From IMG/VR virus record IMGVR_UViG_3300045988_174992: a stretch of DNA of 64,000 bases. One strand, given 5' to 3'. Every line of letters begins with the position of its first letter. Position 1 is the stretch's first letter. This DNA comes from a virus. Under the pieces are notes generated by a model that worked only from the letters and a program-made list of their open reading frames with translations, was not told where the DNA came from and searched no databases. A program made the translations under genes and the position numbers. Of this stretch, positions 24,752 to 63,921 are shown in pieces.

Positions 24752-25123
24752 TTATTCTCCTTCTTCTGGATCTTCTTCATTTTCTTCATCTTCAGAATCA
24801 ATAAAATCTGATAATTTACCCAATTGGCCTGCTAATGACTTTACATCATCTTGGTTTGCTTTATCATCATCTTGCATTTTCTGAACATATTGTTGAAGTA
24901 CATCCTGAATAGAATCCAACTTATCTTTGTTAGAATCATTCACCTTAATCTTGATACCACCATCAATCTTTTCTGAATATACAGAATTCTTATTTGCAAG
25001 GTCTTCAATAGATTTGATAGTATCATCCGCATGTTCAAGATCACCAAATTCAAATCTAAGCATCTTTTCATTGCTTTCATTGATATTTAATGATTCATTC
25101 AATGTTTCTACTAAACTTTTCAT
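24752..25123 (-). CDS. acidic 123-aa protein with MKSLVETLNE leader (CTS-like family)
   Basis: ORF track; L8/E10 leader; D/E-rich C-terminus. Confidence 0.6.
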   Translation of the reverse strand: MKSLVETLNESLNINESNEKMLRFEFGDLEHADDTIKSIEDLANKNSVYSEKIDGGIKIKVNDSNKDKLDSIQDVLQQYVQKMQDDDKANQDDVKSLAGQLGKLSDFIDSEDEENEEDPEEGE

Positions 25124-25146
25124 ATATATTTTAATTAACGTTAATT

Positions 25147-26451
25147 TTAAAAATACGTTAAAAGGTAATTAGCAAAATCTTTACCATATACCTTTATCTT
25201 GTTTCTGTTCTTTACCGTTTCACATTTCTTTACCCATTCTAGAACTTTAATATAGTTCATGATTGTATTCTTAATGCAATCACTATCATCATAAGAACTA
25301 TCTAATGATGGACAATTGAAATTAGTTATGCTATTATGTTCTTTAGATGGGAAGTTGTTATACTTAATATACTCATTCAGAAATTCTATCAGCAAATCTA
25401 TCAAATCATAATTTGGATATTTAACATTATTTTCATTTACTGTCATCCAAGAATTGTAATATACTAAATCACCTAACATTATCTTCAACCATGAATCCAT
25501 GGCATCCTTATACTTTTCAAGACAACTCTTTTCACCTATATTAGATTTTCCATTCAATAGATTATATTGGTTAGTACAAGAATTACAAGTGGAAATAGTA
25601 GAAGGTAAATCAGTACCATCTGTACTGGTATTCATGATAGTCTGCAATAGTTTTGTTGCTTCATCGTTTTCATGATTAGCAAAATATTTCTGTACAGCAT
25701 CATATACATTATTAGGTACTGCTTGCTTGTTTTCTTCTGTTATAGCTGTATACTTCAATATTATTTTGAAGAAAGTTTGTGGAAAGAAATAGAAATCATC
25801 TTCTGTAAACTTTAGATCTGATATCTCATTCTTATTGAAGAAAAAATTCAAGTCAATACTTTTCTTTTCATCATCAGAAAGTTCTTCAAAATATGAAGTT
25901 ATATTTGGCTTATCATTTTCTCTATCGTAGAATAGATAATCAGGCAAGTATATGTCATCATCTTTTTCTGCTAATGACTGAATATCATTACCAGTATGGT
26001 CCTTTGTTCTAGTACACCATTTATATAAAGTTTCATTCAAATAATATTCTTTGCTTGGTCTGAAACCTTCTATACCTGTACCATAAACACTATTGTCTGT
26101 AAGTGCTTTAATCAAGAATTTTCCCAATTCTGAAGTACTATTAGATAGCAATTCTTTTGTAATTGGCACATATATTCTAGGCATGTCAAACTTGTTAGCG
26201 CCGCTATCCTCAAGCATCAGATACTTAGGACCTAAAACTTCACCTTCAACAAAGCCATCACCATATTCTAGTGTTATGTAATTTTCTTCAAACCATTTAA
26301 TACCCATTGCATTAATGCAAAGGAGATATTTTCCTCTGCAAGATTTAGGTATGCAAATATCATCTATGAACTTTACAACAAATGGTTGAAAATTATTTAA
26401 AAATGAATAATTCATGTTCGTATTTCTTTGGTTATTTAAAAATAGTTTCAT
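25147..26451 (-). CDS. hypothetical protein (434 aa; alternative start MNYSFLNNF at 26415)
   Basis: ORF track. Confidence 0.6.
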   Translation of the reverse strand: MKLFLNNQRNTNMNYSFLNNFQPFVVKFIDDICIPKSCRGKYLLCINAMGIKWFEENYITLEYGDGFVEGEVLGPKYLMLEDSGANKFDMPRIYVPITKELLSNSTSELGKFLIKALTDNSVYGTGIEGFRPSKEYYLNETLYKWCTRTKDHTGNDIQSLAEKDDDIYLPDYLFYDRENDKPNITSYFEELSDDEKKSIDLNFFFNKNEISDLKFTEDDFYFFPQTFFKIILKYTAITEENKQAVPNNVYDAVQKYFANHENDEATKLLQTIMNTSTDGTDLPSTISTCNSCTNQYNLLNGKSNIGEKSCLEKYKDAMDSWLKIMLGDLVYYNSWMTVNENNVKYPNYDLIDLLIEFLNEYIKYNNFPSKEHNSITNFNCPSLDSSYDDSDCIKNTIMNYIKVLEWVKKCETVKNRNKIKVYGKDFANYLLTYF

Positions 26452-26484
26452 AAGTTATAGTTCAATAGATGTTGAACAAAAATG

Positions 26485-26578
26485 TTCACACAGGGACGTT
26501 AAAATTATCTTAGCTGATAGAATATACTTCAGTATACTTTTACGCTCCCTGTGTGACCCAGGCACTTTATAGGGGAAC
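26485..26578. ncRNA. conserved 94-nt structured element, copy 1 (unknown class)
   Basis: 83/94 nt are identical to 57986..58079 while the flanks are unrelated. An 11-bp stem TCACACAGGGA/TCCCTGTGTGA closes a 49-nt interior, followed by a GC-rich tail ACCCAGGC...AGGGGAAC. Confidence 0.5.
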
Positions 26579-26585
26579 TTAATTA

Positions 26586-26972
26586 TTATCGTACAGAAAT
26601 AATCAATTTATCCTTCTTTGCAATTTCAAAAGCTTCTTTCATCCCCTTTTCAAATGTACCATTATTAACTGAACTACCAGAGCATAAATGTGAAATGATG
26701 ATATCTAGTTGAATGAGGGCTTCTGGAGATGGAATTACATACTTCCATTTTCCATCATACTTGATTACCATCTTAGTTGCATTTGATTTCTGAGCATCCT
26801 GAACAAATTTGAACATTGATACCCAGTATTCAGTATTTTCCTGAGATTCAAGATCCATGATAGGCATATTTTCTGTATCAATGTTCTTTACAAAATATGT
26901 AGGAGTGTTGGCAAATGACATAACAGATACTACACAGAAAATAAAAGTAACAAAAAACTTCTTCATAATCAT
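26586..26972 (-). CDS. secreted small protein (signal peptide MIMKKFFVTFIFCVVSVMSFA)
   Basis: ORF track; hydrophobic N-terminal h-region followed by an A-x-A-like site. Confidence 0.6.
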   Translation of the reverse strand: MIMKKFFVTFIFCVVSVMSFANTPTYFVKNIDTENMPIMDLESQENTEYWVSMFKFVQDAQKSNATKMVIKYDGKWKYVIPSPEALIQLDIIISHLCSGSSVNNGTFEKGMKEAFEIAKKDKLIISVR

Positions 26973-27032
26973 TATTAATATTTAAATTAAACTTCTTGTT
27001 TTGAATTATTTGTTATTTATTTGAACGAATCT

Positions 27033-27061
27033 AATATAGAACAAACATAAAAAATTTCAAA
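27033..27061 (-). promoter_or_regulatory. minus-strand promoter motif copy C
   Basis: Plus strand reads AATATAGAAC-aaacataaaaa-ATTTCAAA, upstream of 26972. Confidence 0.65.
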
Positions 27062-27104
27062 AACTTATTATTATTTATAAAGCTTATATAAATAAAAATC
27101 TATA

Positions 27105-27833
27105 ATGAAAAATTTAAGTCAGTATCTGAATGAAGCATTGATTATGGAACTTAGTTCTGAATTATTAGGTCGTGCTTCAAAGGCTGCTAGAGAGAAAGGC
27201 AGAAATGCACAAGCAAACAAATTTGCTGTTGCCGCTGGTAAAGCCCTTGAAAAGGAGCTTAAAGGTTGGAAACCTGGTCCTGATGCAAAAAACTGTGGTA
27301 AAGTAGTTGCTACTATTAAAGATATGACTTCTAGTAATAGTGCTGTCAAAGCTTTAGCTAAGGCAGATCCTGCATCTAGCACACATACAATCAAATTCCC
27401 TGTATTAAAACAAATTACAAGTGGTAGTGATGATGGGGCTTTTAAATTTATAAGATGGGAAGATGTCAAAGTTCCTAAGGCAAAATTCTACATCTATAAA
27501 GATGAATATCATCAGTGTTTGCATATTGGTACACTATCAGACTTGCTTGGTCTTTTAGGTTCTGCTTATTTTGACTACGAAGATTTTGATGCTAGCTATA
27601 TAGTTAAATCATTTGACAATATTAAAGATGCAGTAAAATATGCTAGAAAAAGCGGTGAGAAGTTCTATGATAGTGATGAATTCATGGATGGCGTAATGAA
27701 TGGTGAATATACAGATGATGATCTTTATTGGGATGGCCCAGGTAGTAGTATTATTGATATAATGCTTGATTGGACAGATATTTTAAACTTACCTGATGAT
27801 TGGCAAGCTAAAGAGGACTCTTCTTATGATTAA
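27105..27833 (+). CDS. hypothetical 242-aa protein with MKNLSQYLNE leader (CTS-like family)
   Basis: ORF track; L8/E10 leader. Confidence 0.6.
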   Translation: MKNLSQYLNEALIMELSSELLGRASKAAREKGRNAQANKFAVAAGKALEKELKGWKPGPDAKNCGKVVATIKDMTSSNSAVKALAKADPASSTHTIKFPVLKQITSGSDDGAFKFIRWEDVKVPKAKFYIYKDEYHQCLHIGTLSDLLGLLGSAYFDYEDFDASYIVKSFDNIKDAVKYARKSGEKFYDSDEFMDGVMNGEYTDDDLYWDGPGSSIIDIMLDWTDILNLPDDWQAKEDSSYD

Positions 27834-28842: not shown

Positions 28843-30627
28843 ATGATATTTGGTAACTTAAGTAACGTATTAGAAGGAAATAAGACTATATATGAACAAG
28901 CTAATGATATGATGCCTATACAACAAACCCAAATGCAGATAAAAGAACCTGGTCATCTTGCAAAAATTCTGTATAAGCTCAGTCATTATGGTATGAACTG
29001 GACTTCTGATGTTGTAAAGAACATGAAAGCAGTACCAGCAGACAAGTTGATGCAACCAAAGGATATTGGTGTAATGACTTCAAACTTGTATGCTGGTATA
29101 ATGGATAACTGGAAACAGAAACCAGAAGAAGACAAGCCATTTAGAGAAAAGACTCTTGAACAGAAGAGAGATGTTTTGAGAAAGATGGCTATGAATCCAG
29201 AAATCGAAGATATATTGGATATCATGGCTAATGAATGTATAGTTTATGATGATAATGATGTTTATATTGGAGAACCTTACATTGAACCAAGTGTACTGCA
29301 ACAGTTGAATGAGAATCATATAGAAGAGATAAAGAATTGTGTAGATACGAGTTTCTATAAGATATACATGCTTCTTGATTGGAAAAACAAAGCTTGGGAT
29401 CAATTCAAAAGATGGTTGATAGATGGAGTAATAGCTTATGAAATTGTATATGACAACATTGAGAATCCACATACAATCATTGGTATTATCCCTATAGATC
29501 CAGCTACTATTACTCGTGTTATTGATAATGGTATACAATACTGGGTACAGTTTAAAGATGTGATTGGACAAGAACGTATCATGCTTGATTCACAAGTAAT
29601 ATATATCAAATATGAAGATAGTGGAGTAATAGACAGACAATCATATCTTGAACGTCTGATTCGTCCATTCAACATATATAGAATCATAGAACAAGCACAA
29701 CTTATCTGGACTGTAACTCAAGCAAGCTTCAAGACAATGTTCACCATACCTGTAGCTGGGATGAACAGAGCAAAAGGTATGCAAACTCTGAACTCTGCTA
29801 TGGCCAGATATAAAGAAGATATAGACTTCAATACAGAAACTGGTGAACTTAAAGTAAATGGTAGAACTAATCTTCCATTCAATAAAGAATATTGGATGCC
29901 AGAAAATGAGAATGGAAAACCAGAGATAGAGACACTTGTTGACCAAGGCCCAAGCCTTAATGATAGTGAACAACTTAAGTACTATCTTTCTAAGCTATAT
30001 AAGATGTCTAAGATACCAGAAAGCAGATTTGATAAAGAAAATGCTGCTGCTTGGTTTGGAACTGATCCAACTCAAACCCTTCGTGATGAAATAAATTTTG
30101 GTAGATTTGTTGATAGACTTAGAAATGTATTTTCCATGGTAATCATCAAACCTATTCAAATACAAGTTGCTCTTTCAATTCCAGAAATGAAGAATGACAA
30201 GAGAGTATTGGATGCTATCATATTCAGATATAATTCATATAATCAGTTTACTGAGATGATGGATCTTGAAGTTACCAACAAACGTCTTGAAACAATTGGT
30301 ATGCTTAAAGATACATTTACTACAACTGATGCTGAAGGAAATGAAGACAGCTATTTCTCTATGAAATTCTTACTTGAAAGATATCTGAAGATGTCTGATG
30401 CTGATTTTGAATATAACCAAAAATGCAAATGGTTAGAGAAGCAAGAAAAGGGTGATGCTGAATCAGAAGAAGAGGAAAATGGTGAAGAAGAAATGGGTGG
30501 AATAGATTCTGGTTCGGAAGATGCAGGAATGGAAGATGATGGATCTGGGGATGCTGGAGGAGATTCAGAAATGATGGGTGATGTACAACCTGACAATTCA
30601 GCTGAAGGTGGATCAGGAGAAATGTAA
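28843..30627 (+). CDS. portal protein, T4 gp20-like, with acidic C-terminal tail
   Basis: Collinear matches to the remembered gp20 sequence: ANECIVYDDNDVY vs SDAIVYEDDTEVV; FKRWLIDGVIAYEIVYD vs FRRWYVDSRIFFHKIID; IPIDPATI vs LRRLDPRQV; EYWMPENENGKPEIETL...LKYYLSKLYKMSKIPESR vs DYWLQRRDGKAVTEVDTL...IRWFRQALYMALRVPLSR. Confidence 0.85.
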   Translation: MIFGNLSNVLEGNKTIYEQANDMMPIQQTQMQIKEPGHLAKILYKLSHYGMNWTSDVVKNMKAVPADKLMQPKDIGVMTSNLYAGIMDNWKQKPEEDKPFREKTLEQKRDVLRKMAMNPEIEDILDIMANECIVYDDNDVYIGEPYIEPSVLQQLNENHIEEIKNCVDTSFYKIYMLLDWKNKAWDQFKRWLIDGVIAYEIVYDNIENPHTIIGIIPIDPATITRVIDNGIQYWVQFKDVIGQERIMLDSQVIYIKYEDSGVIDRQSYLERLIRPFNIYRIIEQAQLIWTVTQASFKTMFTIPVAGMNRAKGMQTLNSAMARYKEDIDFNTETGELKVNGRTNLPFNKEYWMPENENGKPEIETLVDQGPSLNDSEQLKYYLSKLYKMSKIPESRFDKENAAAWFGTDPTQTLRDEINFGRFVDRLRNVFSMVIIKPIQIQVALSIPEMKNDKRVLDAIIFRYNSYNQFTEMMDLEVTNKRLETIGMLKDTFTTTDAEGNEDSYFSMKFLLERYLKMSDADFEYNQKCKWLEKQEKGDAESEEEENGEEEMGGIDSGSEDAGMEDDGSGDAGGDSEMMGDVQPDNSAEGGSGEM

Positions 30628-30645: not shown

Positions 30646-30753
30646 ATGAAGTCATTATTAGAATTTATTACAGATAGAGAAAATATTCCTAAAAGAGATA
30701 AAGATATACCTAAAATAGATAAAGAAATAGATAATTTATCAGATGAAGCTTAG
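30646..30753 (+). CDS. 35-aa ORF MKSLLEFITDRENIPKRDKDIPKIDKEIDNLSDEA (prohead-core/CTS-like peptide candidate)
   Basis: Hand-found, below the track cutoff. It starts 19 nt after the portal stop and overlaps the next ATG by 11 nt. The leader resembles the T4 sequence MKTYQEFIAE. Confidence 0.4.
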   Translation: MKSLLEFITDRENIPKRDKDIPKIDKEIDNLSDEA

Positions 30754-31432
30754 TAATTGTGAAATAAGACCAGGAGTTGTAGTTACTGCTGATGATCCAA
30801 AGAAAATGGGTCGTATAAAAGCTGTAGTTCCTGGTTGGTTCAATAATGCCTCTATGCATGAAGAAGATATGTTTTGGATTGCTCCATTTACTAGTGGATC
30901 AGGATATCAACGTGTCTCTAAATGCATAGAGGGACAAAAAGTATGGATATTGCATGATTCCACAAATGAATATGAATATTATTATGTCACAATGTGGGAA
31001 ACAAACATCAATACTACTGCCGCTCAACAGGATTTTGATTATGATGTATTAGTGTCAAGATCTGGTAAAAGTGTTGGTGCTCAGATGTTCTATACTGGTA
31101 ATCAAGGATTTGTAACAAGAATAGGAGAACATGCTCAAACGCAGATAAATCAAGCTGGTGATATAGAAAACAAATCTAATGGTACTGAAATATCTATAAG
31201 AGGATCAAAAGCATTTGTTGGATTGTCAGAAAAATGTGAAGATCCAATAGTTAGAGGAAATAAATTATATAAGTTATTATCTGATTTGAAGGCTGGATTA
31301 GATGAATTGAATAATGCGGCTAATGGAAATCCTTATACAATAAATTTATGTCCAGCAATACTTAAATGTTCTAAAGCTATATCAGATACCATAGATGAAA
31401 TGAATTCAAAAACATCATTTGTAAGTGAATAA
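30743..31432 (+). CDS. baseplate central spike / hub OB-fold protein (T4 gp5 N-domain / P2 gpV-like)
   Basis: IRPGVVVTADDPKKMGRIKAVVPGW...MFWIAPFTSG...IEGQKVWILHD compares with gp5 FVGVVEDRMDPLKLGRVRVRVVGLH...LPWMSVIQP...EGTRVYGHFLD. Confidence 0.6.
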   Translation: MKLSNCEIRPGVVVTADDPKKMGRIKAVVPGWFNNASMHEEDMFWIAPFTSGSGYQRVSKCIEGQKVWILHDSTNEYEYYYVTMWETNINTTAAQQDFDYDVLVSRSGKSVGAQMFYTGNQGFVTRIGEHAQTQINQAGDIENKSNGTEISIRGSKAFVGLSEKCEDPIVRGNKLYKLLSDLKAGLDELNNAANGNPYTINLCPAILKCSKAISDTIDEMNSKTSFVSE

Positions 31433-31435: not shown

Positions 31436-32380
31436 ATGGGTGCAATACCAGGACAAATGCAAGCAAAATGCATTGATTATGGACAGAATTTCTTAACAGG
31501 ACAAGCAACTTCAGTTATTGCTGCTACTGGTATTGATATAGAAGCTGGCAATTTGAAACAGTTGGCAGATGCTGTACAAGACAAGACTATGTCTATGGTT
31601 TCTGACTTGAAGAATACAGCTACTAAAGAAGTAACTAAAATTGGAAGTCAGATAGGTGGCATGGCTGGTAGCTTAGTTGGTGCTGGATTATCTGCTATGC
31701 AAGGAGCTTTTCAAACAGCAGATGTTGCTAAGCAAGCGGTTGGAGAACTTACAACGTATGGGGTTCAACTTACTGCTAAAATCGGTACTAATATAGCAAG
31801 TATGATTGCTGCATTTCCTGCACAAGTTACCAAGAAAGCTACTGCTATAGCTGCAGAACAATGTAAAGAAGAACTTCAACAACGATTGAAAGAAGTGATG
31901 GGTACACCAGCAGAAGAGCATGCACAAAAGGAAGCAGAAAAGGAAAAAGAAAACAAAACAAAGAAAGCAATAACTTGGTGTAAGAAAGCTGTAAAAGATG
32001 TCAATGAATTCAAAGATAAGACACTGTCATCTATTCAGAAAGATTGTGAAGATATATCTGCTTTGATGATACAAGGTCCAGGTTGGGTAAACAATCAGAT
32101 GAGTGGTGCTATTGATAGTGCTAAAACATATATGTCTGATTATGCCGATGGCAAAATGAAAGATATTCAGAATCATTATGATGAAGCTGTGAATAATTCT
32201 GCTTACGCCGCAGCTACAACAATGAAGAAAAAACTTATAGATCCAACATTAGAAAAAGCTAAAGAACAATTTAATGATCTTGGAACATCAACAAATAAGA
32301 CAAAGCAAAAAGCTAAGACAGCTGTTCAAAAACAGTTGTTCAAGCTTGCAGGAAAATTAGGAATATCACCAAATGGCTAA
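31436..32380 (+). CDS. Ala/Gly-rich alpha-helical protein (314 aa), function unknown (sits where a small terminase or internal protein could be)
   Basis: ORF track; overlaps the TerL start by 8 nt. Confidence 0.5.
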   Translation: MGAIPGQMQAKCIDYGQNFLTGQATSVIAATGIDIEAGNLKQLADAVQDKTMSMVSDLKNTATKEVTKIGSQIGGMAGSLVGAGLSAMQGAFQTADVAKQAVGELTTYGVQLTAKIGTNIASMIAAFPAQVTKKATAIAAEQCKEELQQRLKEVMGTPAEEHAQKEAEKEKENKTKKAITWCKKAVKDVNEFKDKTLSSIQKDCEDISALMIQGPGWVNNQMSGAIDSAKTYMSDYADGKMKDIQNHYDEAVNNSAYAAATTMKKKLIDPTLEKAKEQFNDLGTSTNKTKQKAKTAVQKQLFKLAGKLGISPNG

Positions 32381-35174
32381 AGAATTTGAATTTGACCCAG
32401 TAAAGAGAGATAAAGGAGGAAAAGAGGCAGAAGCGGTCATCTGGAGCTGCTCAGTACTTGAAAAGGCTGTAGATGCCATGAAGAAGGGTTTGCCATTGAA
32501 AGCAAACCCTTTTATTGGTAAGAATACTAAGTTATTGAAGCCAGATCTGGTCTTCAAGCGTACACAAGAAGAGATAGAAGACTATATGCATTGTATGGAA
32601 GATCCATTGTACTTTGCTACTAAATGCTATCTTATGACTCCAACTGGTTTGCAACCAGTAATACTTCGTGACTATCAGGAAGATTATATGAGGCATCTTC
32701 AGAAAAACAGATTCAGTTTGTTCTTGAGTTGCAGACAAAGTGGTAAAACATTTTTAGAAAATACAAATGTGAAATTTTTGTTTACTAATTCATTCATAAA
32801 CAATTATAGCATTAAGTTTGGTAAACAAAAATTTACATATCTCTTTAAGAATTTCAAATATGTAAAAAGTGGATCTGATTATTTGTTTGAATTGCCTTTT
32901 TATGAGTTTCAAAACTTGTTTGATGATACTGTTTACTGGAAACTGAAATACAATCTATATAAGAAAAAGAAATATCATGCAGTAGAAGTTGTCGACTGGT
33001 TAGAATACAATTTTTTATTCCACAAGAAACTTCTTGACAATTACAAAACAACTAAAGAAATAGATATTTCCAATTATGGAATAAAAGTATTGACAGATGT
33101 TGGATATCAACCAATATCATACATTTACAATACTAAACCATTTGCAATATATAAAGTAATCCTTGAAAATGGATATTCTATAGAATGTGCAGACAAGCAC
33201 ATGTTGTTTGATGATAATTTGAATATAGTATATGCTGATGAACTTGTTGAAAGTGTTTCTAAAATAATGACAGATAAAGGACCATCTGTAGTAAAGTCTG
33301 TTTCAATATCCAAAGTAAAAGTATCTATGTGTGATGTTTCTGTGGATCATCCTTATCACAGATATTATACTAATGGAATATTAAGTCACAACTCAACAAC
33401 AACAGCTATATTCTGCCTTTGGTCGGTATTGTTCAGAAATGATAGAAATGCGTTGATACTTTCTAAATCTGGTCCAGCTGGACAAGATTTGATAAAGAAG
33501 ATAAAAGATATGTACTTGTATCTTCCTTATCATTTGAAGCTTGGTACTTTGAAGTGGAATCAATCAGAAATAGCTTTTGACAACAACTCTACAATATCTA
33601 CTGAAGCTTTCTCTCCTACTGCCGGTCTTGGTAAGACAATAAACTTCTTGATACTTGATGAGTTTGCTTGGTGCCCACCTAATGATGTAGAATTATTCTA
33701 CAACAACATTCTTCCTACTGTTACTGCAGATACAAGCTCTAATATATGTATCATGTCAACACAGAACGGATTCAATTTGTTCTATAAGCTATGGCATGCC
33801 GCAGAAACAGGAAAGTCTATGTATGCTCCATTTAAAGTAGATTGGTGGCAAGTTCCTCAATGGGATCCAGAAAATCATATTTGGAAGAAGAGAGATAATG
33901 CTTGGAAAACTATGATGGTTGGTGTCTTAGGTTCTGAAGAAGCTTTCTACTACCAATACGGTACTCAATTCTCTGCATCAGATAAATGTCTTGTATCAAG
34001 AGAATGCTTAGGTAAGATAAGAGATTTGACTTATCTGTTTGAGACACCTACAGATGATAGTTGGTATTTCAGCTTACATAAGACAGAACTTAAGTTCAAG
34101 AAAGATTATGACTTGCATTGGTTGAAGATAGGATGGTTCATCATATTGGTTGACTTAGCAGAAGGTGGTGGCAATGACTTTACAACGTTCAATATAATAG
34201 AAGTAATAGGAAAAGACAAGTTTGAACAAGTAGGATATTGGCATTGCAACACCATAGATTTGGAACAAGCTAGCTTAGAGTTTTGGGTATTGTATGGACA
34301 GCTATTCAATCCTAATAAGACTATAGTGTCAGTAGAATGGAATACTTATGGGGCTTTATTCTACAACTATCTTAAGAATTTGAATGAACCTGAATATATG
34401 CCAGAAGCAAGTTGGAGATGGCAAGTAAACCCATTAGGAGAATTTGACTTGGCTAACTTGATAAGATATAAGAAAGGCAGTCAAGAAGACAATATTGCTA
34501 ACTTGAATGGATTCAAAAACAGCAAGACAATTCCTGGAATCAGATTAAGCCATGCTACTAAGATATCTGCATGTGCATTGCTTAAGATGATGTTAGAGAA
34601 GTTTGATGTCATAATAACAGATTTGCTTACCGTTTCAGAGCTTGAGAATTTTGAAGATAAGAATGGAAATGGCAGCTATGCCGCGGCATACGGACATGAT
34701 GATTTGATAATGACTTTTGTACAACTTCCACTTCTTAAGAACACTACAAAATATAAAGATTTCATAGAAGAATGGGAGATAGAAATGAAAGCTACAGGTC
34801 AATGGGAACAAATAGAAAAAGAAGAGTCAGAAATGAAGAAACTAGATATGCTTAAGAAGATAGCAGATATGATGGCCAATGTATTGCAGAAAAGAAAAGA
34901 AGAGAAACAAGTAACTGTATCATTGAACAACAGAAATCTACCTACTGCTACTGCTGTAAATTCTTCTGATATATATAGAGAAGCACAAAGTAATGCAAGT
35001 ACCAGTATACCTAACATGTATACAATGTACAATACAAGTATGCAACAAGGATTACCATCTATGAATGACTTTTATGGGTCACCTAATGGATATGGAAATG
35101 AACCAAGCATATATGATATGCCAGGACAATACAACCAAGATCCATTGAGAGCTAGATTCAGACAATTCAACTAA
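32373..35174 (+). CDS. terL: large terminase subunit, T4 gp17-like, interrupted by a Hint/intein-like insertion
   Basis: ILRDYQEDY; Walker A SCRQSGKT, then after the insertion STTTAIFCLW (gp17: SRQLGKTTVVAIFLAHF); Walker B FLILDEFAW; MSTQNGFNLFYKLW (gp17 TTTPNGLNHFYDIW); nuclease-domain motifs VDLAEGGGNDF and YGHDDLIMTF. Confidence 0.9.
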   Translation: MAKEFEFDPVKRDKGGKEAEAVIWSCSVLEKAVDAMKKGLPLKANPFIGKNTKLLKPDLVFKRTQEEIEDYMHCMEDPLYFATKCYLMTPTGLQPVILRDYQEDYMRHLQKNRFSLFLSCRQSGKTFLENTNVKFLFTNSFINNYSIKFGKQKFTYLFKNFKYVKSGSDYLFELPFYEFQNLFDDTVYWKLKYNLYKKKKYHAVEVVDWLEYNFLFHKKLLDNYKTTKEIDISNYGIKVLTDVGYQPISYIYNTKPFAIYKVILENGYSIECADKHMLFDDNLNIVYADELVESVSKIMTDKGPSVVKSVSISKVKVSMCDVSVDHPYHRYYTNGILSHNSTTTAIFCLWSVLFRNDRNALILSKSGPAGQDLIKKIKDMYLYLPYHLKLGTLKWNQSEIAFDNNSTISTEAFSPTAGLGKTINFLILDEFAWCPPNDVELFYNNILPTVTADTSSNICIMSTQNGFNLFYKLWHAAETGKSMYAPFKVDWWQVPQWDPENHIWKKRDNAWKTMMVGVLGSEEAFYYQYGTQFSASDKCLVSRECLGKIRDLTYLFETPTDDSWYFSLHKTELKFKKDYDLHWLKIGWFIILVDLAEGGGNDFTTFNIIEVIGKDKFEQVGYWHCNTIDLEQASLEFWVLYGQLFNPNKTIVSVEWNTYGALFYNYLKNLNEPEYMPEASWRWQVNPLGEFDLANLIRYKKGSQEDNIANLNGFKNSKTIPGIRLSHATKISACALLKMMLEKFDVIITDLLTVSELENFEDKNGNGSYAAAYGHDDLIMTFVQLPLLKNTTKYKDFIEEWEIEMKATGQWEQIEKEESEMKKLDMLKKIADMMANVLQKRKEEKQVTVSLNNRNLPTATAVNSSDIYREAQSNASTSIPNMYTMYNTSMQQGLPSMNDFYGSPNGYGNEPSIYDMPGQYNQDPLRARFRQFN
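32751..33392 (+). mobile_element. Hint/intein-like insertion (214 aa) in the TerL P-loop
   Basis: In-frame insert after GKT. Block-B-like ENGYSIECADKHMLF; block F/G-like VSMCDVSVDHPYHRYYTNGILSHN followed by +1 Ser. There is no Cys/Ser at the N-junction. Confidence 0.6.
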
Positions 35175-37220: not shown

Positions 37221-37222
37221 AG

Positions 37223-37295
37223 AGCCATTAACCGGGTATGATCCGATAACCTTCTGTTTACAAAACAGATGCTCTACCAATTGAGCTATAATGGC
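37223..37295 (-). tRNA. tRNA-Thr(UGU)
   Basis: Acceptor GCCATTA/TAATGGC, D-arm GCTC-AATTGGT-AGAGC, anticodon stem TCTGT/ACAGA with loop TTTGTAA. T-loop ATCATAC is non-canonical. Confidence 0.8.
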
Positions 37296-37437
37296 ATATA
37301 AAATCAAATATGGCATCAGATGTGCAAACTATCATGACCATATTCTAGTAATACATTGAGCTATCAGGAGTACCCGTAGATTGCACTGACACCTCTAACA
37401 ACTGCCTAGTTAAATGCTAGGTCCTCTCTATTACTTG

Positions 37438-37511
37438 TGGAGATGATGGAGTATGATTCCATATAATCTGTCTTGCAAGGACAGTGCTCTATCCATTTAA
37501 GCTACATCCCC
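37438..37511 (-). tRNA. tRNA-Ala(UGC)
   Basis: Acceptor GGGGATG/CATCTCC with G3:U70, loop CTTGCAA, T-loop ATCATAC. Confidence 0.85.
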
Positions 37512-37706
37512 ATTTCTAGTACTTATTCATTGTACTAAAATATATTCTGTAGCGAATTATATGCAGAATAATATTTTATATATGTACAATGAAGTAAGGT
37601 TGGCAGGTACTAGAACCTTCAAGTGATTAGCTTGACCATATCCATTTTGAGTAGCGTTCAAAATCAAAGATTTATCACGCCGCCTCTAAATAATCGTTGC
37701 CGTTTG

Positions 37707-37779
37707 CTGGCACCCTGGGACTCGAACCCAGGACCTTGAACTTAACGGGTTCCTGCTCTACCAACTGAGCTAAGCACCA
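37707..37779 (-). tRNA. tRNA-Asn(GUU), atypical
   Basis: D-arm GCTC-AGTTGGTA-GAGC, T-arm CTGGG-TTCGAGT-CCCAG, loop CCGTTAA (C at position 33). The acceptor stem needs three G:U pairs. Confidence 0.6.
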
Positions 37780-37810
37780 ATCAATTCTTCACAGTGAATT
37801 ACTCTGTTAG

Positions 37811-37892
37811 TGATGGGTGTGGGAGTCGAACCCACTATTGTACGGCTTATGAGACCGACGTGATTTATAAATATCCGTTTCACTCACCCACG
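37811..37892 (-). tRNA. tRNA(CAU), Met/initiator-like, with 16-nt D-loop
   Basis: T-arm GTGGG-TTCGACT-CCCAC, loop CTCATAA, D-stem GTGA/TCAC enclosing AACGGATATTTATAAA, and a C1xC72 mismatch. Confidence 0.5.
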
Positions 37893-37908
37893 ATATATAG
37901 TTAACTAT

Positions 37909-38934
37909 TTAAATAATAGTATTTTCTTTTAAATATTTCAAGAATTCATTAAATTTTTCTTTAACAAAATTTTTATTTGCCTTCCCCATATCTTTTATAA
38001 TATAAGGTGTCCAACCACATTCTTCAATTTCTTTTATCTTTATTTTATCCCTATTTTGTGTTTGTTTAACAGAATGTGATTTTGTAATTTGTTTATAATG
38101 CCATGGGCCATTCCATAATACCGCAAATTTTATATCTTCTATTATTATATCTGCATCCCATCCATTAAATATACATTCATTATGTTTAATATTATTAAAA
38201 TATTCTTCACATAATTTACAGAATTCAATTTCATTTTTACTACGTCTTAAATCACCTTGATGTTGTATTCCTTTGCAACCACCATTATGTAAACCTAACC
38301 AACTTTCTTTAGAAAATAATTTACCATTGATATAATGATATCCCTTTAATTTTAATTTTTCAATTTCTTTATTTCGTTTATCTTCTAATTCTTTTAATTG
38401 GGATAAATTCAATAATTCCCTTTTAATTATTTCTATTTTCTTTGTTAGTTTTTTATATTCATAATATTCATCATCTATTTTATTAGAATTATGTACCTTA
38501 TTTATGTGTTTTGGTTTACATTCATCACACATACAAGTTTTTATTGATGCTCTTGATGATATTGTTATTTCTTTACCACATTCAATGCATTTCGCTTGTT
38601 TAGTATTTCCTGTAGATAATTTTCCTACATAAGAATGTGAACATTCAAGACTACAAAAATATTTTTTATTTATGTCAAATTTATTTTGTCTTTCCTTAAT
38701 TTTAAATTCTTTTCCACAATTAAAACATTTTACATTATATTCTAATAGTGGATTTTTTCTTTGATATGCAATTTGTAATGCTATGCCAGAATTTTTTGAA
38801 CATTTAGCAACACGTTCATCAGTTTCATTTGTAAGGCCTGAATTCCACATTAATTTATGGTTTGGATTCATTTTACAATATTTTTCATGTTGCTTTACAT
38901 TTTTATATTCTTTATTGCAATATCTACATTCCAT
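37909..38934 (-). CDS. free-standing homing-endonuclease candidate: N-terminal Cys-rich zinc-ribbon repeats plus C-terminal Vsr/DUF559-like PD-(D/E)xK domain
   Basis: CRYCNKEY...HEKYC, CFNCGKEF...CSLECSH and CIECGKE...CMCDEC clusters. C-terminus GWDADIIIEDIKFAVLWNGPWHYK...QNRDKIKIKEIEECGWTPYIIKD. Embedded in the tRNA island. Confidence 0.55.
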   Translation of the reverse strand: MECRYCNKEYKNVKQHEKYCKMNPNHKLMWNSGLTNETDERVAKCSKNSGIALQIAYQRKNPLLEYNVKCFNCGKEFKIKERQNKFDINKKYFCSLECSHSYVGKLSTGNTKQAKCIECGKEITISSRASIKTCMCDECKPKHINKVHNSNKIDDEYYEYKKLTKKIEIIKRELLNLSQLKELEDKRNKEIEKLKLKGYHYINGKLFSKESWLGLHNGGCKGIQHQGDLRRSKNEIEFCKLCEEYFNNIKHNECIFNGWDADIIIEDIKFAVLWNGPWHYKQITKSHSVKQTQNRDKIKIKEIEECGWTPYIIKDMGKANKNFVKEKFNEFLKYLKENTII

Positions 38935-38944
38935 AATTTTAATG

Positions 38945-38973
38945 ATTGTCAGACTACTTGGCAGTCTGACAAT
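38945..38973 (-). promoter_or_regulatory. 11-bp stem hairpin 11 nt upstream of the endonuclease start codon
   Basis: ATTGTCAGACT-acttggc-AGTCTGACAAT. Confidence 0.4.
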
Positions 38974-39149
38974 TTGTATGTTATTTCAAAGAATTTTCGG
39001 GGCCGAGGCATGTCCTTAAGTACCATCGTATGGGACATTTTATCAGTTTCTCCTAATCTTCAACGTGCTATATTATGAGGTAGCGCTACTTCTCTTTTCA
39101 ACGTTCCATGAACTAGTATACTCCCTGGTACGGACTCGATGTTTAATTG

Positions 39150-39223
39150 TACTCCAGGAGGGACTTGAACCCCCGACCACTTGGGTATAAGCCGAGCACT
39201 CTAACCAACTGAGTTACTGGAGT
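39150..39223 (-). tRNA. tRNA-Ile(UAU)
   Basis: Acceptor ACTCCAG/CTGGAGT, T-arm GGGGG-TTCAAGT-CCCTC region, loop CTTATAC. One C:A mismatch in the anticodon stem. Confidence 0.75.
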
Positions 39224-39237
39224 ATTTATTTATATTA

Positions 39238-39268
39238 AATATAGAACAACTATATCCAAAATTTCAAA
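39238..39268 (-). promoter_or_regulatory. minus-strand promoter motif copy D (internal to the tRNA island, spacer 13)
   Basis: Plus strand reads AATATAGAAC-aactatatccaaa-ATTTCAAA. Confidence 0.55.
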
Positions 39269-39276
39269 GAATTTTG

Positions 39277-39350
39277 TAGGTGGTATAGGACTTGAATCTA
39301 TGACCTCTTGCTTATCAGGCAAGCTATCTAACCAACTGATATAACCACCT
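39277..39350 (-). tRNA. tRNA-Ile(GAU)
   Basis: Acceptor AGGTGGT/ACCACCT, loop CTGATAA, T-arm ATAGA-TTCAAGT-CCTAT. Confidence 0.85.
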
Positions 39351-39356
39351 AAATTG

Positions 39357-39428
39357 TTGGACCACGGAGGTTCGAACTCCGAATGACAGAACCAAAATCT
39401 GTAGTGTTTCCAATTACACCATAGTCCA
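39357..39428 (-). tRNA. tRNA-Gln(UUG)
   Basis: Acceptor TGGACTA/TGGTCCA, loop TTTTGGT, T-arm CGGAG-TTCGAAC-CTCCG. Confidence 0.85.
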
Positions 39429-39437
39429 ATTTATTTG

Positions 39438-39514
39438 CGGAGCATAAGGGACTCGAACCCTTAGTTTTACTAGAGTGACAGTCTAGTTCCCTTACCAACA
39501 GGGCTTAATACTCC
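39438..39514 (-). tRNA. tRNA-Asp(GUC)
   Basis: Acceptor GGAGTAT/ATGCTCC, anticodon arm CTAGA-CTGTCAC-TCTAG, T-arm AAGGG-TTCGAGT-CCCTT. The D-arm and variable region are slightly irregular. Confidence 0.7.
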
Positions 39515-39663
39515 CAATACTGATTAAAGTCTCAGTTAGCTGCACATCAATCTCCTATGTGGCTTTTGCAATAACTTTAGTTGCAAGCAACATAAAGCGT
39601 TGATTATATCTAAATTGCTCACACATCACTTTGTCATGATTTTCATTTGTTCTTTTGACCCAG

Positions 39664-39746
39664 TGGGCAGAGAGAGATTCGAACTCCCGAAGGCCGAAGC
39701 CATTTGATTTACAGTCAAACCATTTTAACCACTTATCTATCTACCC
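39664..39746 (-). tRNA. tRNA-Tyr(GUA), long variable arm
   Basis: Acceptor GGGTAGA/TCTGCCC, loop CTGTAAA, variable arm TGGCTTCGGCCTTC, T-arm GGGAG-TTCGAAT-CTCTC. Confidence 0.85.
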
Positions 39747-39757
39747 AATTTTATTAG

Positions 39758-39829
39758 TAGCCGCAGCGAGAATCGAACTCGCCTTGACAGATCGAAAATC
39801 TGTAGTACTAACCACTATACGATACGGCC
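39758..39829 (-). tRNA. tRNA-Glu(UUC)
   Basis: Acceptor GGCCGTA/TGCGGCT, arm ACAGA-TTTTCGA-TCTGT, T-arm GCGAG-TTCGATT-CTCGC. Confidence 0.85.
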
Positions 39830-39951
39830 ATTTAGTACACCCTTATTCCATTCTGCAGCAATGGGAATGTACAAGGTCAGTAGGTTGACCAGCCTCCATA
39901 TTGGTTTATTTAAGAGAACCAACGTTAAACTGTTTTGATTAAACTCTTTCG

Positions 39952-40022
39952 TGCCAGAAGTGAGAATCGAACTCGCCTTGACAGATCGAAATCTGTAGTA
40001 CTAACCACTATACGATACTGGC
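39952..40022 (-). tRNA. tRNA-Glu paralog with 6-nt anticodon loop (anticodon-less tRNA-like RNA or pseudogene)
   Basis: The body is identical to tRNA-Glu except for a 1-nt deletion in the anticodon loop (ACAGAT-TTCG-ATCTGT), one T-stem change and a remodelled acceptor stem GCCAGTA/TTCTGGC. Confidence 0.6.
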
Positions 40023-40032
40023 ATTCAAATTA

Positions 40033-40224
40033 TTATTTTTGACATAATTGCTTGATCTTATTCTTAATTCTTTCTAGTGTTACACTAGATTCCTCATTAA
40101 ATTGATCAGTATCAATAACTGCATCTATTACCATAAGCAATTGCATGAATCTCATATCTGGAAACATCCAGGCAAATTGCTTTGTAATATCCAATATCTT
40201 AATGTTTGCTTCTAATCTTGTCAT
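40033..40224 (-). CDS. hypothetical 63-aa protein
   Basis: ORF track; preceded by promoter copy E. Confidence 0.5.
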   Translation of the reverse strand: MTRLEANIKILDITKQFAWMFPDMRFMQLLMVIDAVIDTDQFNEESSVTLERIKNKIKQLCQK

Positions 40225-40261
40225 AATAATTATGTTTTAATGTTTTATAACTTACATATAT

Positions 40262-40291
40262 AATATAGATTTGATTTATCAGTATTTCAAA
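40262..40291 (-). promoter_or_regulatory. minus-strand promoter motif copy E (spacer 12)
   Basis: Plus strand reads AATATAGATT-tgatttatcagt-ATTTCAAA. Confidence 0.55.
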
Positions 40292-40552
40292 GATCTTTCA
40301 AAAAATTTTCATTTTTTTTTTTGTTTATCAACTTTTTTAAATCAACAAAGAGCAACACATTTCTGCATTGCTCTTGTCTTGATTGTATTGTTGAATGTTT
40401 AAACAGTGGAGGCATTGTTTAAATTATACACATACAAGACTTGATATGTATAATTATATGTTCTCATTTGTTTAATATTTCTATGTTCATTAATTAATTA
40501 TAATCTATAAATAGATAAATGGTCTATAAATTTTGGTTAAATATTGTTAAAA

Positions 40553-41176
40553 TTACTTTTTTACATTCTTTAATGAATCATCAGAGAATACATATAAGAA
40601 TTTTGAACCTTTACTTAAATACAAATTAGTACGGAATTGTATACCAGTAATAAGCTTATCATCAACAATACACATAACTGGATATACATTAACAACTGCT
40701 GTACCTTCTCCTGTCTTTACATACATATCCTTTTCAAGAGTAATAATTTCTTGATTGAATATGGCATCCATCTTTTTAAGTTCTCTATCCATTTCATCAG
40801 TCAAACCCAACCTTTTAAGTTCTTTATTTGCATATAATACATTCTTAATGGTAAGTTTCTTATTTTCAATAGATGCATCTTGATCTTTAAGATATTTATT
40901 AATATTGATTAGGTCAACAAATCCACGTTGGCCAACACTATAAAGATCTGCTTTATTCTGGATGTCATCGTAAGCTTGTCTTGCATTATCATCATTTACT
41001 GCATAATAAGGACCATCACCAATAACCTTCTTACAAGCAGCCTCAAGTTCTTTATGCCGTTTCTTAGAAAAACCTACTTTTGTAAACAAATCCTTCAAAG
41101 TATCAAATTCTTCTGCATTCTTGATAATATAAGATGAATCAAGTGATTCATAAATAGATTGTACTAATGATTTCAT
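40553..41176 (-). CDS. hypothetical 207-aa protein with MKSLVQSIYE leader (CTS-like family)
   Basis: ORF track; I8/E10 leader; an A13 tract lies just upstream of the ATG on the minus strand. Confidence 0.6.
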   Translation of the reverse strand: MKSLVQSIYESLDSSYIIKNAEEFDTLKDLFTKVGFSKKRHKELEAACKKVIGDGPYYAVNDDNARQAYDDIQNKADLYSVGQRGFVDLININKYLKDQDASIENKKLTIKNVLYANKELKRLGLTDEMDRELKKMDAIFNQEIITLEKDMYVKTGEGTAVVNVYPVMCIVDDKLITGIQFRTNLYLSKGSKFLYVFSDDSLKNVKK

Positions 41177-41462
41177 TTTATTTCTTTTTATTTTTTTTTT
41201 TTTATTTCTTTTTAATGATGATTAAAAATAATATATAGATATCACATATTTTGAGATAGGTGTGTCCATCAATTCCACTATGGAAGTAATAAAATAAATT
41301 GATAGCAAGTACGTACTTCTTGCATCAGACCTTCGTGTAGAGTTTACATGGTGTTTTTAGTTATTTATCCTTAGTATGCACCGTATTTACCCACAGCTTT
41401 AAGCATACTTACCTTCATAACTCGTCTTTCTTCCTTCTCTATTCAAGATTGCTATCAATTTG

Positions 41463-41548
41463 TACTCCGAACGGGGATCGAACCCGTACAACCATTCCTG
41501 GTCAAGGGATTTTAAGTCCCTCGTGTATACCAATTTCACCATCGGAGC
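41463..41548 (-). tRNA. tRNA-Leu(UAA), long variable arm
   Basis: Acceptor GCTCCGA/TCGGAGT, arm AGGGA-CTTAAAA-TCCCT, T-arm ACGGG-TTCGATC-CCCGT. Confidence 0.85.
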
Positions 41549-41901: not shown

Positions 41902-41908
41902 AAATTAG

Positions 41909-42436: not shown

Positions 42437-42453
42437 ATATATATTAGCAATGT

Positions 42454-62019: not shown

Positions 62020-62637
62020 TTACATTTCAATGAATTTCTTATTATTACGATAAACTAACTTATCAACAAAGATTTTAGGAAGATCAGCATATTCCTTACG
62101 ACACCAATCATTGACACTAAGATGGCCAGTCAACCAGTTAGTATAATTAGACTTATCCAAACCAACAATCTTTCCTCTTGACTCATAATGTGCCATACTG
62201 AAGTTGTCCTTTCGCATCATTGCATTCAATGCTTTATTGATATGGCTAATCAAATCATTCAAATCATCATAAATGAAATATGTATGCTTTGACTTTCCTG
62301 TTTTAGTATTGTATAAAACATATCCCCAGTTGCTAATTCTCTTGTTGTTGCTATGGTACAAGAAAAGCTTATCATAGTAGTCAATTCCTTTAGTAAGGTG
62401 AATATCAAACACCATACAATTTGACTTTCTTCTGTTAAATACCATCAAATCTTCTACAATTGGTTTCCAATGCTTGTCATCATTAAGATCAAACGTCATT
62501 TCACCATAATTAGCAAATGATATATCCTTTACATGTCTAGTTTGTGAAAGAATCCAAATAATCTTGTTAGCTTCCTTCTCTTTGATTGGATCAACATTGA
62601 TATTCCAAAATTCAAACTCTAAATTATATTTCTTCAT
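62020..62637 (-). CDS. hypothetical protein (205 aa)
   Basis: ORF track. Confidence 0.55.
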   Translation of the reverse strand: MKKYNLEFEFWNINVDPIKEKEANKIIWILSQTRHVKDISFANYGEMTFDLNDDKHWKPIVEDLMVFNRRKSNCMVFDIHLTKGIDYYDKLFLYHSNNKRISNWGYVLYNTKTGKSKHTYFIYDDLNDLISHINKALNAMMRKDNFSMAHYESRGKIVGLDKSNYTNWLTGHLSVNDWCRKEYADLPKIFVDKLVYRNNKKFIEM

Positions 62638-62648
62638 AGTACCTCTAT

Positions 62649-63320
62649 TTACTTTTTATCTACTACCTTGTTATCTACTACCTTGTTATATTCCGCTCGC
62701 AACTTCTCGATATTGTCACACATAGAAGTCTCGTTACCTTTATTATCTTTTACTTTTTTGCAAGGTGAACCTGGTTCACCATACAACTTTACATAAATAG
62801 TATATGCTTCAGGAAACTCTTCCTTCAACTTGTTGATAGTTGTGATAGAACTTAATGTACAAGAAAGCTTATCAGACCAATCTTGCAAATCCAATCTCTT
62901 TATAGTAATGGTTTTGATTTTCTCTGCAATCTCTGGTGCATTCTTCTTAATGTATTCTACTAGTGTATCATCAAAATGAAAACCATGAATACTAACATCA
63001 TCAATCATCTTATTATAGATATTTTTTACATGAAAGCAAGGATAAGTATGATTCCATCTACTCCAAACGTCATATCTTTCTTTATCTTCCTTTGTCAAGA
63101 AATCATATCCATAAAATGTCACATCACCCTTATCAATAAGATGAGGATACTTCTTTTCAAACTCAAATACCTCATTTGGAATATCTTTCATAAATAATGC
63201 AGTAAGTTCACTTTCTACATTTGACATTATTGGTTTGTATTCTTTCTCAACAACATTTTTAGTCATTACACGAACCACACCTTCTCTTTCTGCTTTTGAA
63301 AACTTCTTATAAGCTACCAT
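62649..63320 (-). CDS. hypothetical protein, paralog of 990..1748
   Basis: Shared C-terminal motifs; see 990..1748. Confidence 0.65.
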   Translation of the reverse strand: MVAYKKFSKAEREGVVRVMTKNVVEKEYKPIMSNVESELTALFMKDIPNEVFEFEKKYPHLIDKGDVTFYGYDFLTKEDKERYDVWSRWNHTYPCFHVKNIYNKMIDDVSIHGFHFDDTLVEYIKKNAPEIAEKIKTITIKRLDLQDWSDKLSCTLSSITTINKLKEEFPEAYTIYVKLYGEPGSPCKKVKDNKGNETSMCDNIEKLRAEYNKVVDNKVVDKK

Positions 63321-63324
63321 AATT

Positions 63325-63921
63325 TTACTTTTCTAAAATGTTTCTTAAATAATCTATTACATATTCAATATTCTCTTCTGTAAAGTCATATACTTCACGT
63401 TTCTGCAACTTGCTATTTACAGCTTGAATAAATGTAGACTTATCAAGTTTGTTTCCAAACTTGTTCTGTACTTTCTCATATACACCATATATCTGTTGCA
63501 AGTCATCATGCAAGTCACCAGAATACTCCATTGGAAACTCTTCATCTGGAAAACTTGCTGTCCAAATATAGTTCAAACCATTTCTAAGAATATTCCAAAC
63601 ATACATATCATGAACTATAATATCATCATATTGCAATTTAGACAATGGATAAGCTTCTTGCAATGTTATTGATGCACTATCTGTCTTTACTTCACCATTA
63701 TCATCTATATAGAACCAAGATAAATAAAATGCAGTTTTGCAATAGCTTAATACATCTCTGAATATTCTCTGTTTCTTAAGATATTCATAGAATTCTTTTG
63801 TATTCAATGCTTGAAACTGGTCCGGATTATCCTCATCTCTAATATAGAGCACTGGACAACCTTTGTTTGGACCAACAAGCACACCATCATTTACAATTGA
63901 TATAGCTGTTGTTAAATTCAT
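63325..63921 (-). CDS. hypothetical protein (198 aa)
   Basis: ORF track. Confidence 0.55.
   Translation of the reverse strand: MNLTTAISIVNDGVLVGPNKGCPVLYIRDEDNPDQFQALNTKEFYEYLKKQRIFRDVLSYCKTAFYLSWFYIDDNGEVKTDSASITLQEAYPLSKLQYDDIIVHDMYVWNILRNGLNYIWTASFPDEEFPMEYSGDLHDDLQQIYGVYEKVQNKFGNKLDKSTFIQAVNSKLQKREVYDFTEENIEYVIDYLRNILEK

Follow-up and report, generated by a model that had tools for sequence, protein, structure and literature searches.

The loading of internal proteins into the head of phage T4 by means of a short N-terminal tag is textbook knowledge. Amber-suppressor genetics on the tag of the internal protein IPIII assigned targeting to residues 4 and 7 and processing to residues 8 and 10; with Asp at position 10, the T4 tag still mediates targeting but is no longer processed (PMC9026906). 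In the T-even phages, the polymorphic internal-protein loci encode diverse defence proteins, which have only the targeting sequence in common (PMC3012670). A jumbo phage of the phiKZ/SPN3US type possesses many inner-head proteins with N-terminal propeptides, most of them longer than 100 residues, which are removed after Glu by a homologous protease (PMC5694885). In the literature covered, which included few papers from subscription journals, descriptions of the tag are confined to T4 and the T-even phages; related ideas exist for SPN3US and P1, and no report on gut jumbo phages was found. Here we analyzed a ten-residue leader found at the N-terminus of several otherwise unrelated proteins, which are encoded in a stretch of 64,000 nucleotides from a virus (IMG/VR record IMGVR_UViG_3300045988_174992), in the following called the window.

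A preliminary description of the window, made from its letters alone, had named five open reading frames (ORFs) that share such a leader and had read the leader as a packaging-and-cleavage tag of the T4 type. All five ORFs are present with the ten-mers named there (Table 1), the pattern MK(S/T/N)L...(L/I).(E/D) stands at the start of each of them, and in 5/5 ORFs no start codon lies between the preceding stop and the Met of the leader. After removal of residues 1 to 12, each of the five belongs to a BLAST family of its own, which agrees with the view that their bodies are unrelated. All five leaders have Leu at position 4. Leu or Ile at position 8 is combined with Glu at position 10 in four of the five, and the fifth, a remnant of 35 amino acids (aa), has Asp at position 10. 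The preliminary description gave MKTYQEFIAE as the start of the T4 internal proteins IPI, IPII and IPIII. In the T4 sequences, which were taken from NC_000866, this is the case for IPII and IPIII (MKTYQEFIAEA) but not for IPI, which starts MKTFKEFTSTTTPVSTITE / MKTFKEFTSTTTPVSTITEA. Judging from the sequence comparisons, we consider it likely that the shared ten residues are a T4-type capsid-targeting propeptide, which would dock on the core, be cut after Glu10 and leave the mature protein in the head.

The source phage has a genome of about 277 kilobases (kb) and originates from the human gut: the window shows 0 mismatches over 10,676 checked bases to the ENA contig ERZ919512 k127_125124 (human-gut metagenome, 276,731 base pairs). 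Relatives were collected from IMG/VR (labelled L001 etc.) and comprise 42 portal loci, with identities from 99% down to 37%, and 79 capsid loci. In 85 clade loci with 2174 gene calls, the leader was identified on 72 of 2009 unique proteins. It matches 3.6% of the N-termini versus 0.03% per internal position, an enrichment of 118-fold. The 72 proteins belong to 36 body families, between which no BLAST similarity was detected. With an iterated profile, whose threshold is passed by 2 of 1996 control proteins, the set grows to 156 proteins in 78 families and makes up as much as 7.8% of the proteins near head genes.

The consensus of the leader in the clade is MK[STN]L.[EQ][YF]I.E[SA], with MKSLVEFITEA, MKHLVEYIAEA and MKTLVEYIKEA among the examples. 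Position 6, which was left free by the search pattern, is Glu or Gln in 54% of the families. Position 7 is Tyr or Phe in 59-73% across the clade, the lower value being that of the families found with the original search pattern, which left this position free as well. Glu occupies position 10 in 82-89%. The conservation common to the families stops at about residue 11-12, and folded domains start by about residue 12-20, as is seen for the P-loop of a tagged kinase (L012).

It was also considered whether the leader results from composition or translation in an AT-rich genome without Shine-Dalgarno sites, from a repeated DNA cassette or from chance. The GC content of the window is 31%, a Shine-Dalgarno-like 4-mer is located within 20 bases upstream of only 4 of 47 genes (genes of at least 80 aa in the whole window) with the DNA before the starts being merely A-rich, and Lys2 is encoded by AAA in 27 of 36 families, all of which would fit such an origin. 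Against it stands the codon usage of the leader. Ser3 is encoded by AGT but also by TCA and TCT, Leu4 by TTA, CTA, CTT and TTG, and ten different codons are in use at position 8. Since the conserved positions are written with synonymous and even disjoint codon sets, the leader DNA is not a repeat. The DNA upstream of the leaders has only its A/T richness in common and contains no conserved motif. Shuffling of the N-terminal columns led to 2.5 ± 1.6 expected matches and to no more than 10 in any of 1000 shuffles, against the 72 observed. Other T4-like phages, used as a control, gave 4 matches among 2132 genes (115 loci), and no match was obtained within ±20 kb of the portal genes in LR756500, Lak-B5 and PTm1 despite a still lower GC content of 25-30%. 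An origin from composition or chance is contradicted by these results and is extremely improbable in our view. The leader is a protein-level signal and not a DNA repeat.

The window was scanned with a position-specific scoring matrix (PSSM) derived from 31 leader families that occur in relatives; neither the window nor its seven near-identical strains contributed to it. The scores were 22.0 for the 242-aa protein, 17.7 for the 207-aa protein, 17.5 for the 35-aa ORF and 15.6 for the 123-aa protein. For comparison, the 99.9th percentile among the 2132 control genes lay at 12.3. When all 3133 ATGs on both strands were scored, values above 6 occurred at four sites only, which are the starts of four leader ORFs; the start of the 242-aa gene ranked first with 21.5. 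A sixth candidate, a doubtful ORF of 33 aa beside the tRNA block (44790-44891, MKSLKLHSVS), was rejected with a profile score of 1.3.

The profile derived from the clade alone was also applied to T4 (116 gene calls, 63 kb). It ranked IPIII first and IPII second, followed by gp24, which has a 10-residue propeptide, in fourth and IPI in fifth place. Only 2 of 2135 control proteins scored as high as IPIII. The positions responsible for targeting and processing in T4 (4, 7, 8 and 10) are the same as those conserved in the clade.

A gp21-type protease had been expected elsewhere in the genome, and it was found there. A Peptidase_S77 protein of 525 aa is encoded on the same contig, directly upstream of the Gp23 capsid gene. 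A scan for capsid genes gave loci on contigs of sister strains, one of which (L160) overlaps the last three genes of the window, and a look-up of the last gene of the window gave its own contig with the same protease and capsid genes. On a 98%-identical copy of the 525-aa protein, Peptidase_S77 (PF03420) was detected with 42.5 bits at a cutoff of 27. The residues aligned with His85 and Ser140 of T4 gp21, which we take to be its catalytic residues, are invariant. Searches with the proteases of T4, PTm1, L040 and L042 (phmmer/hmmsearch) detected no protease in the window, nor in relatives up to 10 kb on either side of the portal gene. Pfam was negative on the neighbours of the capsid genes in L034 and L036, a scan of viral contigs with a protease profile returned only other T4-like phages among the best 80 loci listed, and a PDB sequence search with the protease fusion gave no match.

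The C-terminal two-thirds of the protease are scaffold-like and contain 4.3 (L/I)xE per 100 aa, compared to 0.98 in the window proteins. About seven tandem SPEVQKWIVE(Q/N)Y repeats, each with an I-V-E triplet, are located in this tail and are possible self-cleavage sites or docking sites of the leader. A tail rich in (L/I)xE would be expected of a protease that shares the specificity of gp21 and degrades the scaffold to which it is fused. The capsid protein and its homologs have (M/I/L)-x-E followed by Ala, Gly or Ser at one matching place in the N-terminal region.

From these data we infer the following course of events. During head assembly, the N-terminal peptide would dock its protein onto the scaffolding core via the hydrophobic position 4 and the aromatic position 7, and the core itself would consist of the scaffold part at the C-terminus of the Peptidase_S77 fusion that the phage encodes. 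After closure of the shell, the protease would cut after Glu10 of the (L/I)-x-E triplet. The mature protein would be kept in the head and would leave it together with the DNA at infection.

Table 1. Location of the leader genes, of the head genes and neighbouring genes, and of leader-tagged genes with domain matches in relatives
Feature	Location	Strand	Size	Remarks
Leader gene	24752-25123	-	123 aa	MKSLVETLNE, then S; leader codons 25094-25123
Leader gene	27105-27833	+	242 aa	MKNLSQYLNE, then A; leader codons 27105-27134
Leader gene	40553-41176	-	207 aa	MKSLVQSIYE, then S; leader codons 41147-41176
Leader gene, weak variant	656-955	-	99 aa	MKTLSKLLEE, then K; leader codons 926-955
Remnant ORF	30646-30753	+	35 aa	MKSLLEFITD...
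Gene between two leader genes	26586-26972	-	128 aa	starts MIMKKFFVTFIFCVVSVMSFA
Portal protein, T4-type	28843..30627	+	594 aa	phrog_213, 3e-75; phmmer against T4 gp20, 3e-25; PF07230 Portal_T4
Conserved gene	30743..31432	+	229 aa	starts MKLSNCEIRPGV...; right border of portal-adjacent slot
Conserved gene	31436-32380	+	314 aa	
Large terminase	32373-35174	+	933 aa	PHROGs search
tRNA block	37222-44466	-	25 tRNA genes	all on the minus strand
Giant ORF	45016-49905	+	1629 aa	
Giant ORF	49952-56146	+	2064 aa	
Last three window genes	62020..63921	-		tie the window to the contig segment with protease and capsid genes
Protease-scaffold fusion	window-equivalent 70171-71748 (L160 8337-9914 / L205 2174-3751)	+	525 aa	6.2 kb past the right end of the window
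Major capsid gene, Gp23 family	window-equivalent 71835-73655	+		Gp23 103.5 bits, cutoff 24.4
ADP-ribosyltransferase PF03496, leader-tagged	L010 11810-12391		193 aa	47.8 bits; MKTLKDYILE, then K; directly after the portal gene
NUDIX hydrolase, leader-tagged	L009 4614-5090			56.8 bits
NUDIX hydrolase, leader-tagged	L021 11822-12271			68.1 bits
AAA_33 P-loop kinase, leader-tagged	L012 9432-9923			68.2 bits
DUF285 repeat protein, leader-tagged	L171			128.6 bits
DUF285 repeat proteins, two genes, leader-tagged	L025 (5039-6189 for one listed site)			208.6 and 179.5 bits

The 123-aa protein is conserved throughout the clade. Its residues M1, K2, L4 and E10 are invariant in the alignment, and the overall identity to the orthologs in L011-L017 is 26-30%. 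It has a second site, I-N-E, at residues 14-16 and an acidic C-terminal tail, with an isoelectric point (pI) of 4.2 for the mature protein. The 242-aa protein likewise has a second site, I-M-E at residues 13-15. Its homologs were found in 91 clusters, with N9 and E10 invariant, and sister strains contain one or two tandem copies of the gene, some of which start with MQSL. The 207-aa protein is a paralog of a 244-aa leader protein encoded beside the portal gene in sister strains (same BLAST family, 26-40% identity) and shows only a sub-threshold match to HhH-GPD in Pfam. An AlphaFold2 model of the 242-aa protein, with a mean predicted local distance difference test (pLDDT) value of 65, gave no PDB fold match below E = 1, and that of the 207-aa protein was unusable (pLDDT 55). 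In both models residues 1-12/13 have a pLDDT below 50.

The match of the 99-aa protein to the leader is marginal if taken alone and becomes credible only together with its homologs. These homologs, from public metagenomes, keep M1, K2, L4, Leu, Ile or Val at position 8 and E10, with starts such as MKKLRELLEE, MKKLSQILNE, MKRLTDIIRE, MKELSQYISE and MKSLARYILE. The leader is followed by a linker that is hypervariable in sequence and length and then by a well-conserved body starting LDMDWINNDKPV.

The preliminary description had predicted a conserved leader on a divergent body. This applies to three of the families, in which the mean pairwise identities of residues 1-10 versus the body are 0.63 versus 0.42 (123-aa protein), 0.70 versus 0.36 (207-aa protein) and 0.69 versus 0.54 (242-aa protein), but not to the family of the 99-aa protein, which is considered below. 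The bodies of the tagged window proteins have no match in PHROGs and only sub-threshold matches in Pfam. If the leader is cut after Glu10, the mature proteins would start with SLNINESNEK..., ALIMELSSELLGR... and SLDSSYIIK....

A Sec or lipoprotein signal peptide was rejected as an explanation. The leaders are polar or charged at positions 2, 6 and 10 and have no hydrophobic run, in contrast to the 128-aa protein encoded between two of the leader genes, which has a hydrophobic, signal-peptide-like start and no family match.

The portal gene serves as the anchor of the head module and as the left border of a slot that extends to the 229-aa gene. Depending on the lineage, this slot contains zero to three leader genes (L001-L039). 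Its content was compared between strains with 98-99% identical portals, and even among these the leader genes vary in presence and copy number. A repeat protein and the 244-aa protein are encoded in L001, L003 and L006, the 244-aa protein alone in L004 and L005, and L007 has no intact leader gene. In the window, the slot contains only the 35-aa ORF, which had been taken for an intact protein. Comparison with sister strains (L001, L003, L004, L005, L006) revealed that it is instead a deletion remnant fusing two leader genes, in which the leader and the KRDKD-repeat start of a gene of 68-102 aa are joined to the IDNLSDEA end, with the stop codon, of the 244-aa gene. Both parent genes are intact in the sister strains.

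Several tagged genes of relatives encode bodies with recognizable domains, among them an Alt-family ADP-ribosyltransferase, NUDIX hydrolases, a P-loop kinase and DUF285 repeat proteins (Table 1). Weaker matches on tagged bodies point to a HAD hydrolase, an RNA ligase and a sigma factor. Several of the domain-bearing tagged genes occupy the slot immediately downstream of the portal gene. The Alt-family enzyme and the strain variation of the leader genes lend indirect support to the idea of a packaged cargo. The 242-aa, 207-aa and 99-aa proteins as well as the products of the strain-variable genes beside the portal gene probably represent such cargo.

The leaders might also be propeptides of the gp21 type on window proteins that are all assembly parts of the prohead core and that, as with gp67, gp68 and gp22 of T4, would be broken down or lost from the head at maturation instead of being delivered. 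This is plausible for the 123-aa gene with its second I-N-E site. On the basis of its clade-wide conservation and its gp67-like acidic tail, this protein is probably a prohead-core component comparable to T4 gp67 and not variable cargo. The conservation of the 242-aa protein in 91 homolog clusters and the acidic nature of the mature proteins, unlike that of DNA-associated internal proteins, would fit assembly parts too. However, the portal-adjacent genes and the 242-aa family vary among near-identical strains, which is unusual for essential assembly parts, and a tagged ADP-ribosyltransferase or tagged NUDIX hydrolases are sensible only as delivered activities. As an account of the tagged proteins of the window, we regard a role restricted to core assembly as highly unlikely.

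The T4-type tag proposed in the preliminary description is well supported in silico, and the in silico tests suggested with it were all favourable. Nevertheless, a number of observations weigh against it. Only two of the five window leaders have an aromatic residue (Tyr or Phe) at position 7, the other three having Thr, Ser and Leu. The 99-aa protein reached a PSSM score of only 0.9 (4.5 for its start in the ATG scan), with the next-best window gene at -0.7, and in its family residues 1-10 are less conserved than the body (mean pairwise identity 0.42 versus 0.71), only the pattern positions of the leader being kept. With pI values of 4.2-7.6, the mature proteins of the window range from acidic to neutral, whereas T4 IPII and IPIII are basic. 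The iterated profile may have drifted, so that its 156 proteins and 78 families have to be taken with caution. No cultured relative was found, the top portal match in the phage collection being 37% identical. In the regions sampled from intermediate relatives the leader did not appear, so that it may share an ancestor with the T4 tag or may be convergent. Finally, some of the tagged bodies belong to enzyme types that are cytoplasmic and unpackaged in T4, such as the P-loop kinase and the weakly matched RNA ligase and sigma factor.

Some of these points would also be explained if the leader is a real N-terminal module, probably a short amphipathic helix, with another role such as chaperone binding, other targeting or a tag for stability or degradation, its likeness to T4 being convergent. 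The cytoplasmic enzyme types, which besides the AAA_33 P-loop kinase and the weak RNA-ligase and sigma-factor matches include the NUDIX and the HAD-like hydrolases, and the lack of the leader in the intermediate relatives are in line with such a module, as is the share of tagged proteins near head genes according to the iterated profile, which is large for a capsid cargo. On the other hand, the conserved positions match those for targeting (4, 7) and for gp21 processing (8, 10) in T4, and the clade profile picks the tag-bearing proteins of T4 itself. The same genome encodes an S77 protease with a scaffold tail rich in (L/I)xE, an Alt-family ADP-ribosyltransferase is among the tagged proteins, and the hot spot directly after the portal gene is the place of the gp21 substrates gp67 and gp68 in T4. 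We consider a module with another role unlikely, although it is the strongest of the alternatives discussed here.

The T4-type propeptide leads to a further assumption, which we favour only slightly: in this uncultivated clade of gut phages with genomes of about 277 kb, the T4 tag would be used nearly unchanged, on at least 36 and perhaps about 78 protein families in the sampled loci alone, as a label for proteins injected with the DNA. The tagged set would then comprise an Alt-like ADP-ribosyltransferase, NUDIX hydrolases, a P-loop kinase and BspA-like repeat proteins, encoded at strain-variable hot spots. If this is true, the packaged effectors of unculturable phages could be listed from metagenomes by sequence alone. 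DNA-injected phage proteins act before phage gene expression and are nearly invisible to genome annotation. Known injected counter-defence factors include IPI* and Alt of T4. If the tag has a T4-like function, many domains of unknown function would become candidates for early-acting effectors. New in comparison to T4 are the lineage, an uncultivated one of human-gut jumbo phages, the nearly verbatim tag at such a distance, and the size and turnover of the repertoire. The near-identity of the tags in T4 and the jumbo phages would point either to an old docking site on the scaffold core that has been preserved or to two separate origins of the tag, and both would be informative on the loading of the head. 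In addition, the T4 tag, which is in use for protein delivery and vaccines, may be transferable to platforms based on other phages.

With regard to the genomic setting, the window had no match of near-identical DNA in the deposited phage collection. The best portal matches are 31-37% identical and come from Sphingomonas phage PAU, huge uncultured phages, Tenacibaculum phage PTm1 and Lak phages. The near-absence of Shine-Dalgarno sites fits a host of the Bacteroidota type, and the host of the clade is probably a member of the Bacteroidota. The T4 late-promoter motif TATAAATA is not enriched in the window (25 observed versus 18 expected).

The portal and terminase genes of the window are separated by the conserved 229-aa and 314-aa genes. 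The former shows a weak match to Phage_base_V (gp5/VgrG OB domain) of 19.4 bits, which is below the cutoff. In T4 and PTm1, by contrast, the interval between portal and terminase contains the protease, scaffold and capsid genes, which indicates that the head module of the clade has been rearranged. The unusual length of the terminase is explained by an insertion of about 214 residues (residues 127-340). It lies exactly at the point corresponding to residue 167 of T4 gp17, in the P-loop region of the ATPase. The end of the insertion (...GILSHN) is intein-like, and the match to Intein_splicing in Pfam is weak. Within the tRNA block, one call (39951-40022) is odd and has a two-base 'anticodon'. 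Neither of the two adjacent giant ORFs has a PHROG or Pfam match.

Among the known systems, the long propeptides of the phiKZ/SPN3US type were ruled out as a model, because the leader described here has ten residues with an (L/I)-x-E site and its shared conservation is over by residue 11-12. The phiKZ/SPN3US-type propeptides are cut at (S/A/G)-x-E. The T4 proteins gp67 and gp68 are small, are encoded directly after the portal gene and are cut by gp21 at (L/I)xE sites. The acidic C-terminal tail of gp67 resembles that of the 123-aa protein. However, no homology is detectable, and the 123-aa gene is located 3.7 kb upstream of the portal gene on the opposite strand. Alt of T4 is packaged and cut by gp21 as well, but its N-terminal propeptide MELITELFDE belongs to another sequence class than the clade leader. 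The tagged ADP-ribosyltransferase of L010 is a member of the same Pfam family PF03496, for which Alt scores 124 bits. Alt has 682 aa versus 193 aa for the L010 protein, and the window contains no such gene.

Compared with the T4 internal proteins, the phage described here belongs to a distant lineage with a distant host. Its portal matches gp20 with only 3e-25 in phmmer, and Shine-Dalgarno sites are missing. Position 4 of the leader is Leu or Ile in the clade and Tyr in T4, and the protease is fused to the scaffold. The sampled clade loci contain at least 36 body families, in contrast to a handful in the T-even phages. In both phages, a tag of about ten residues is located at the extreme N-terminus, MKTYQEFIAE followed by Ala in T4 and MK[STN]L.[EQ][YF]I.E followed by Ser or Ala in the clade, and it is carried by unrelated, fast-evolving bodies at variable loci. 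The S77 protease gene lies beside the capsid gene in both. One tagged gene is found in or beside a tRNA cluster in both phages, the 207-aa gene being located within the tRNA block of the window much like ipI beside the tRNA cluster of T4. The turnover of leader genes at the level of strains resembles the polymorphic internal-protein loci of the T-even phages.

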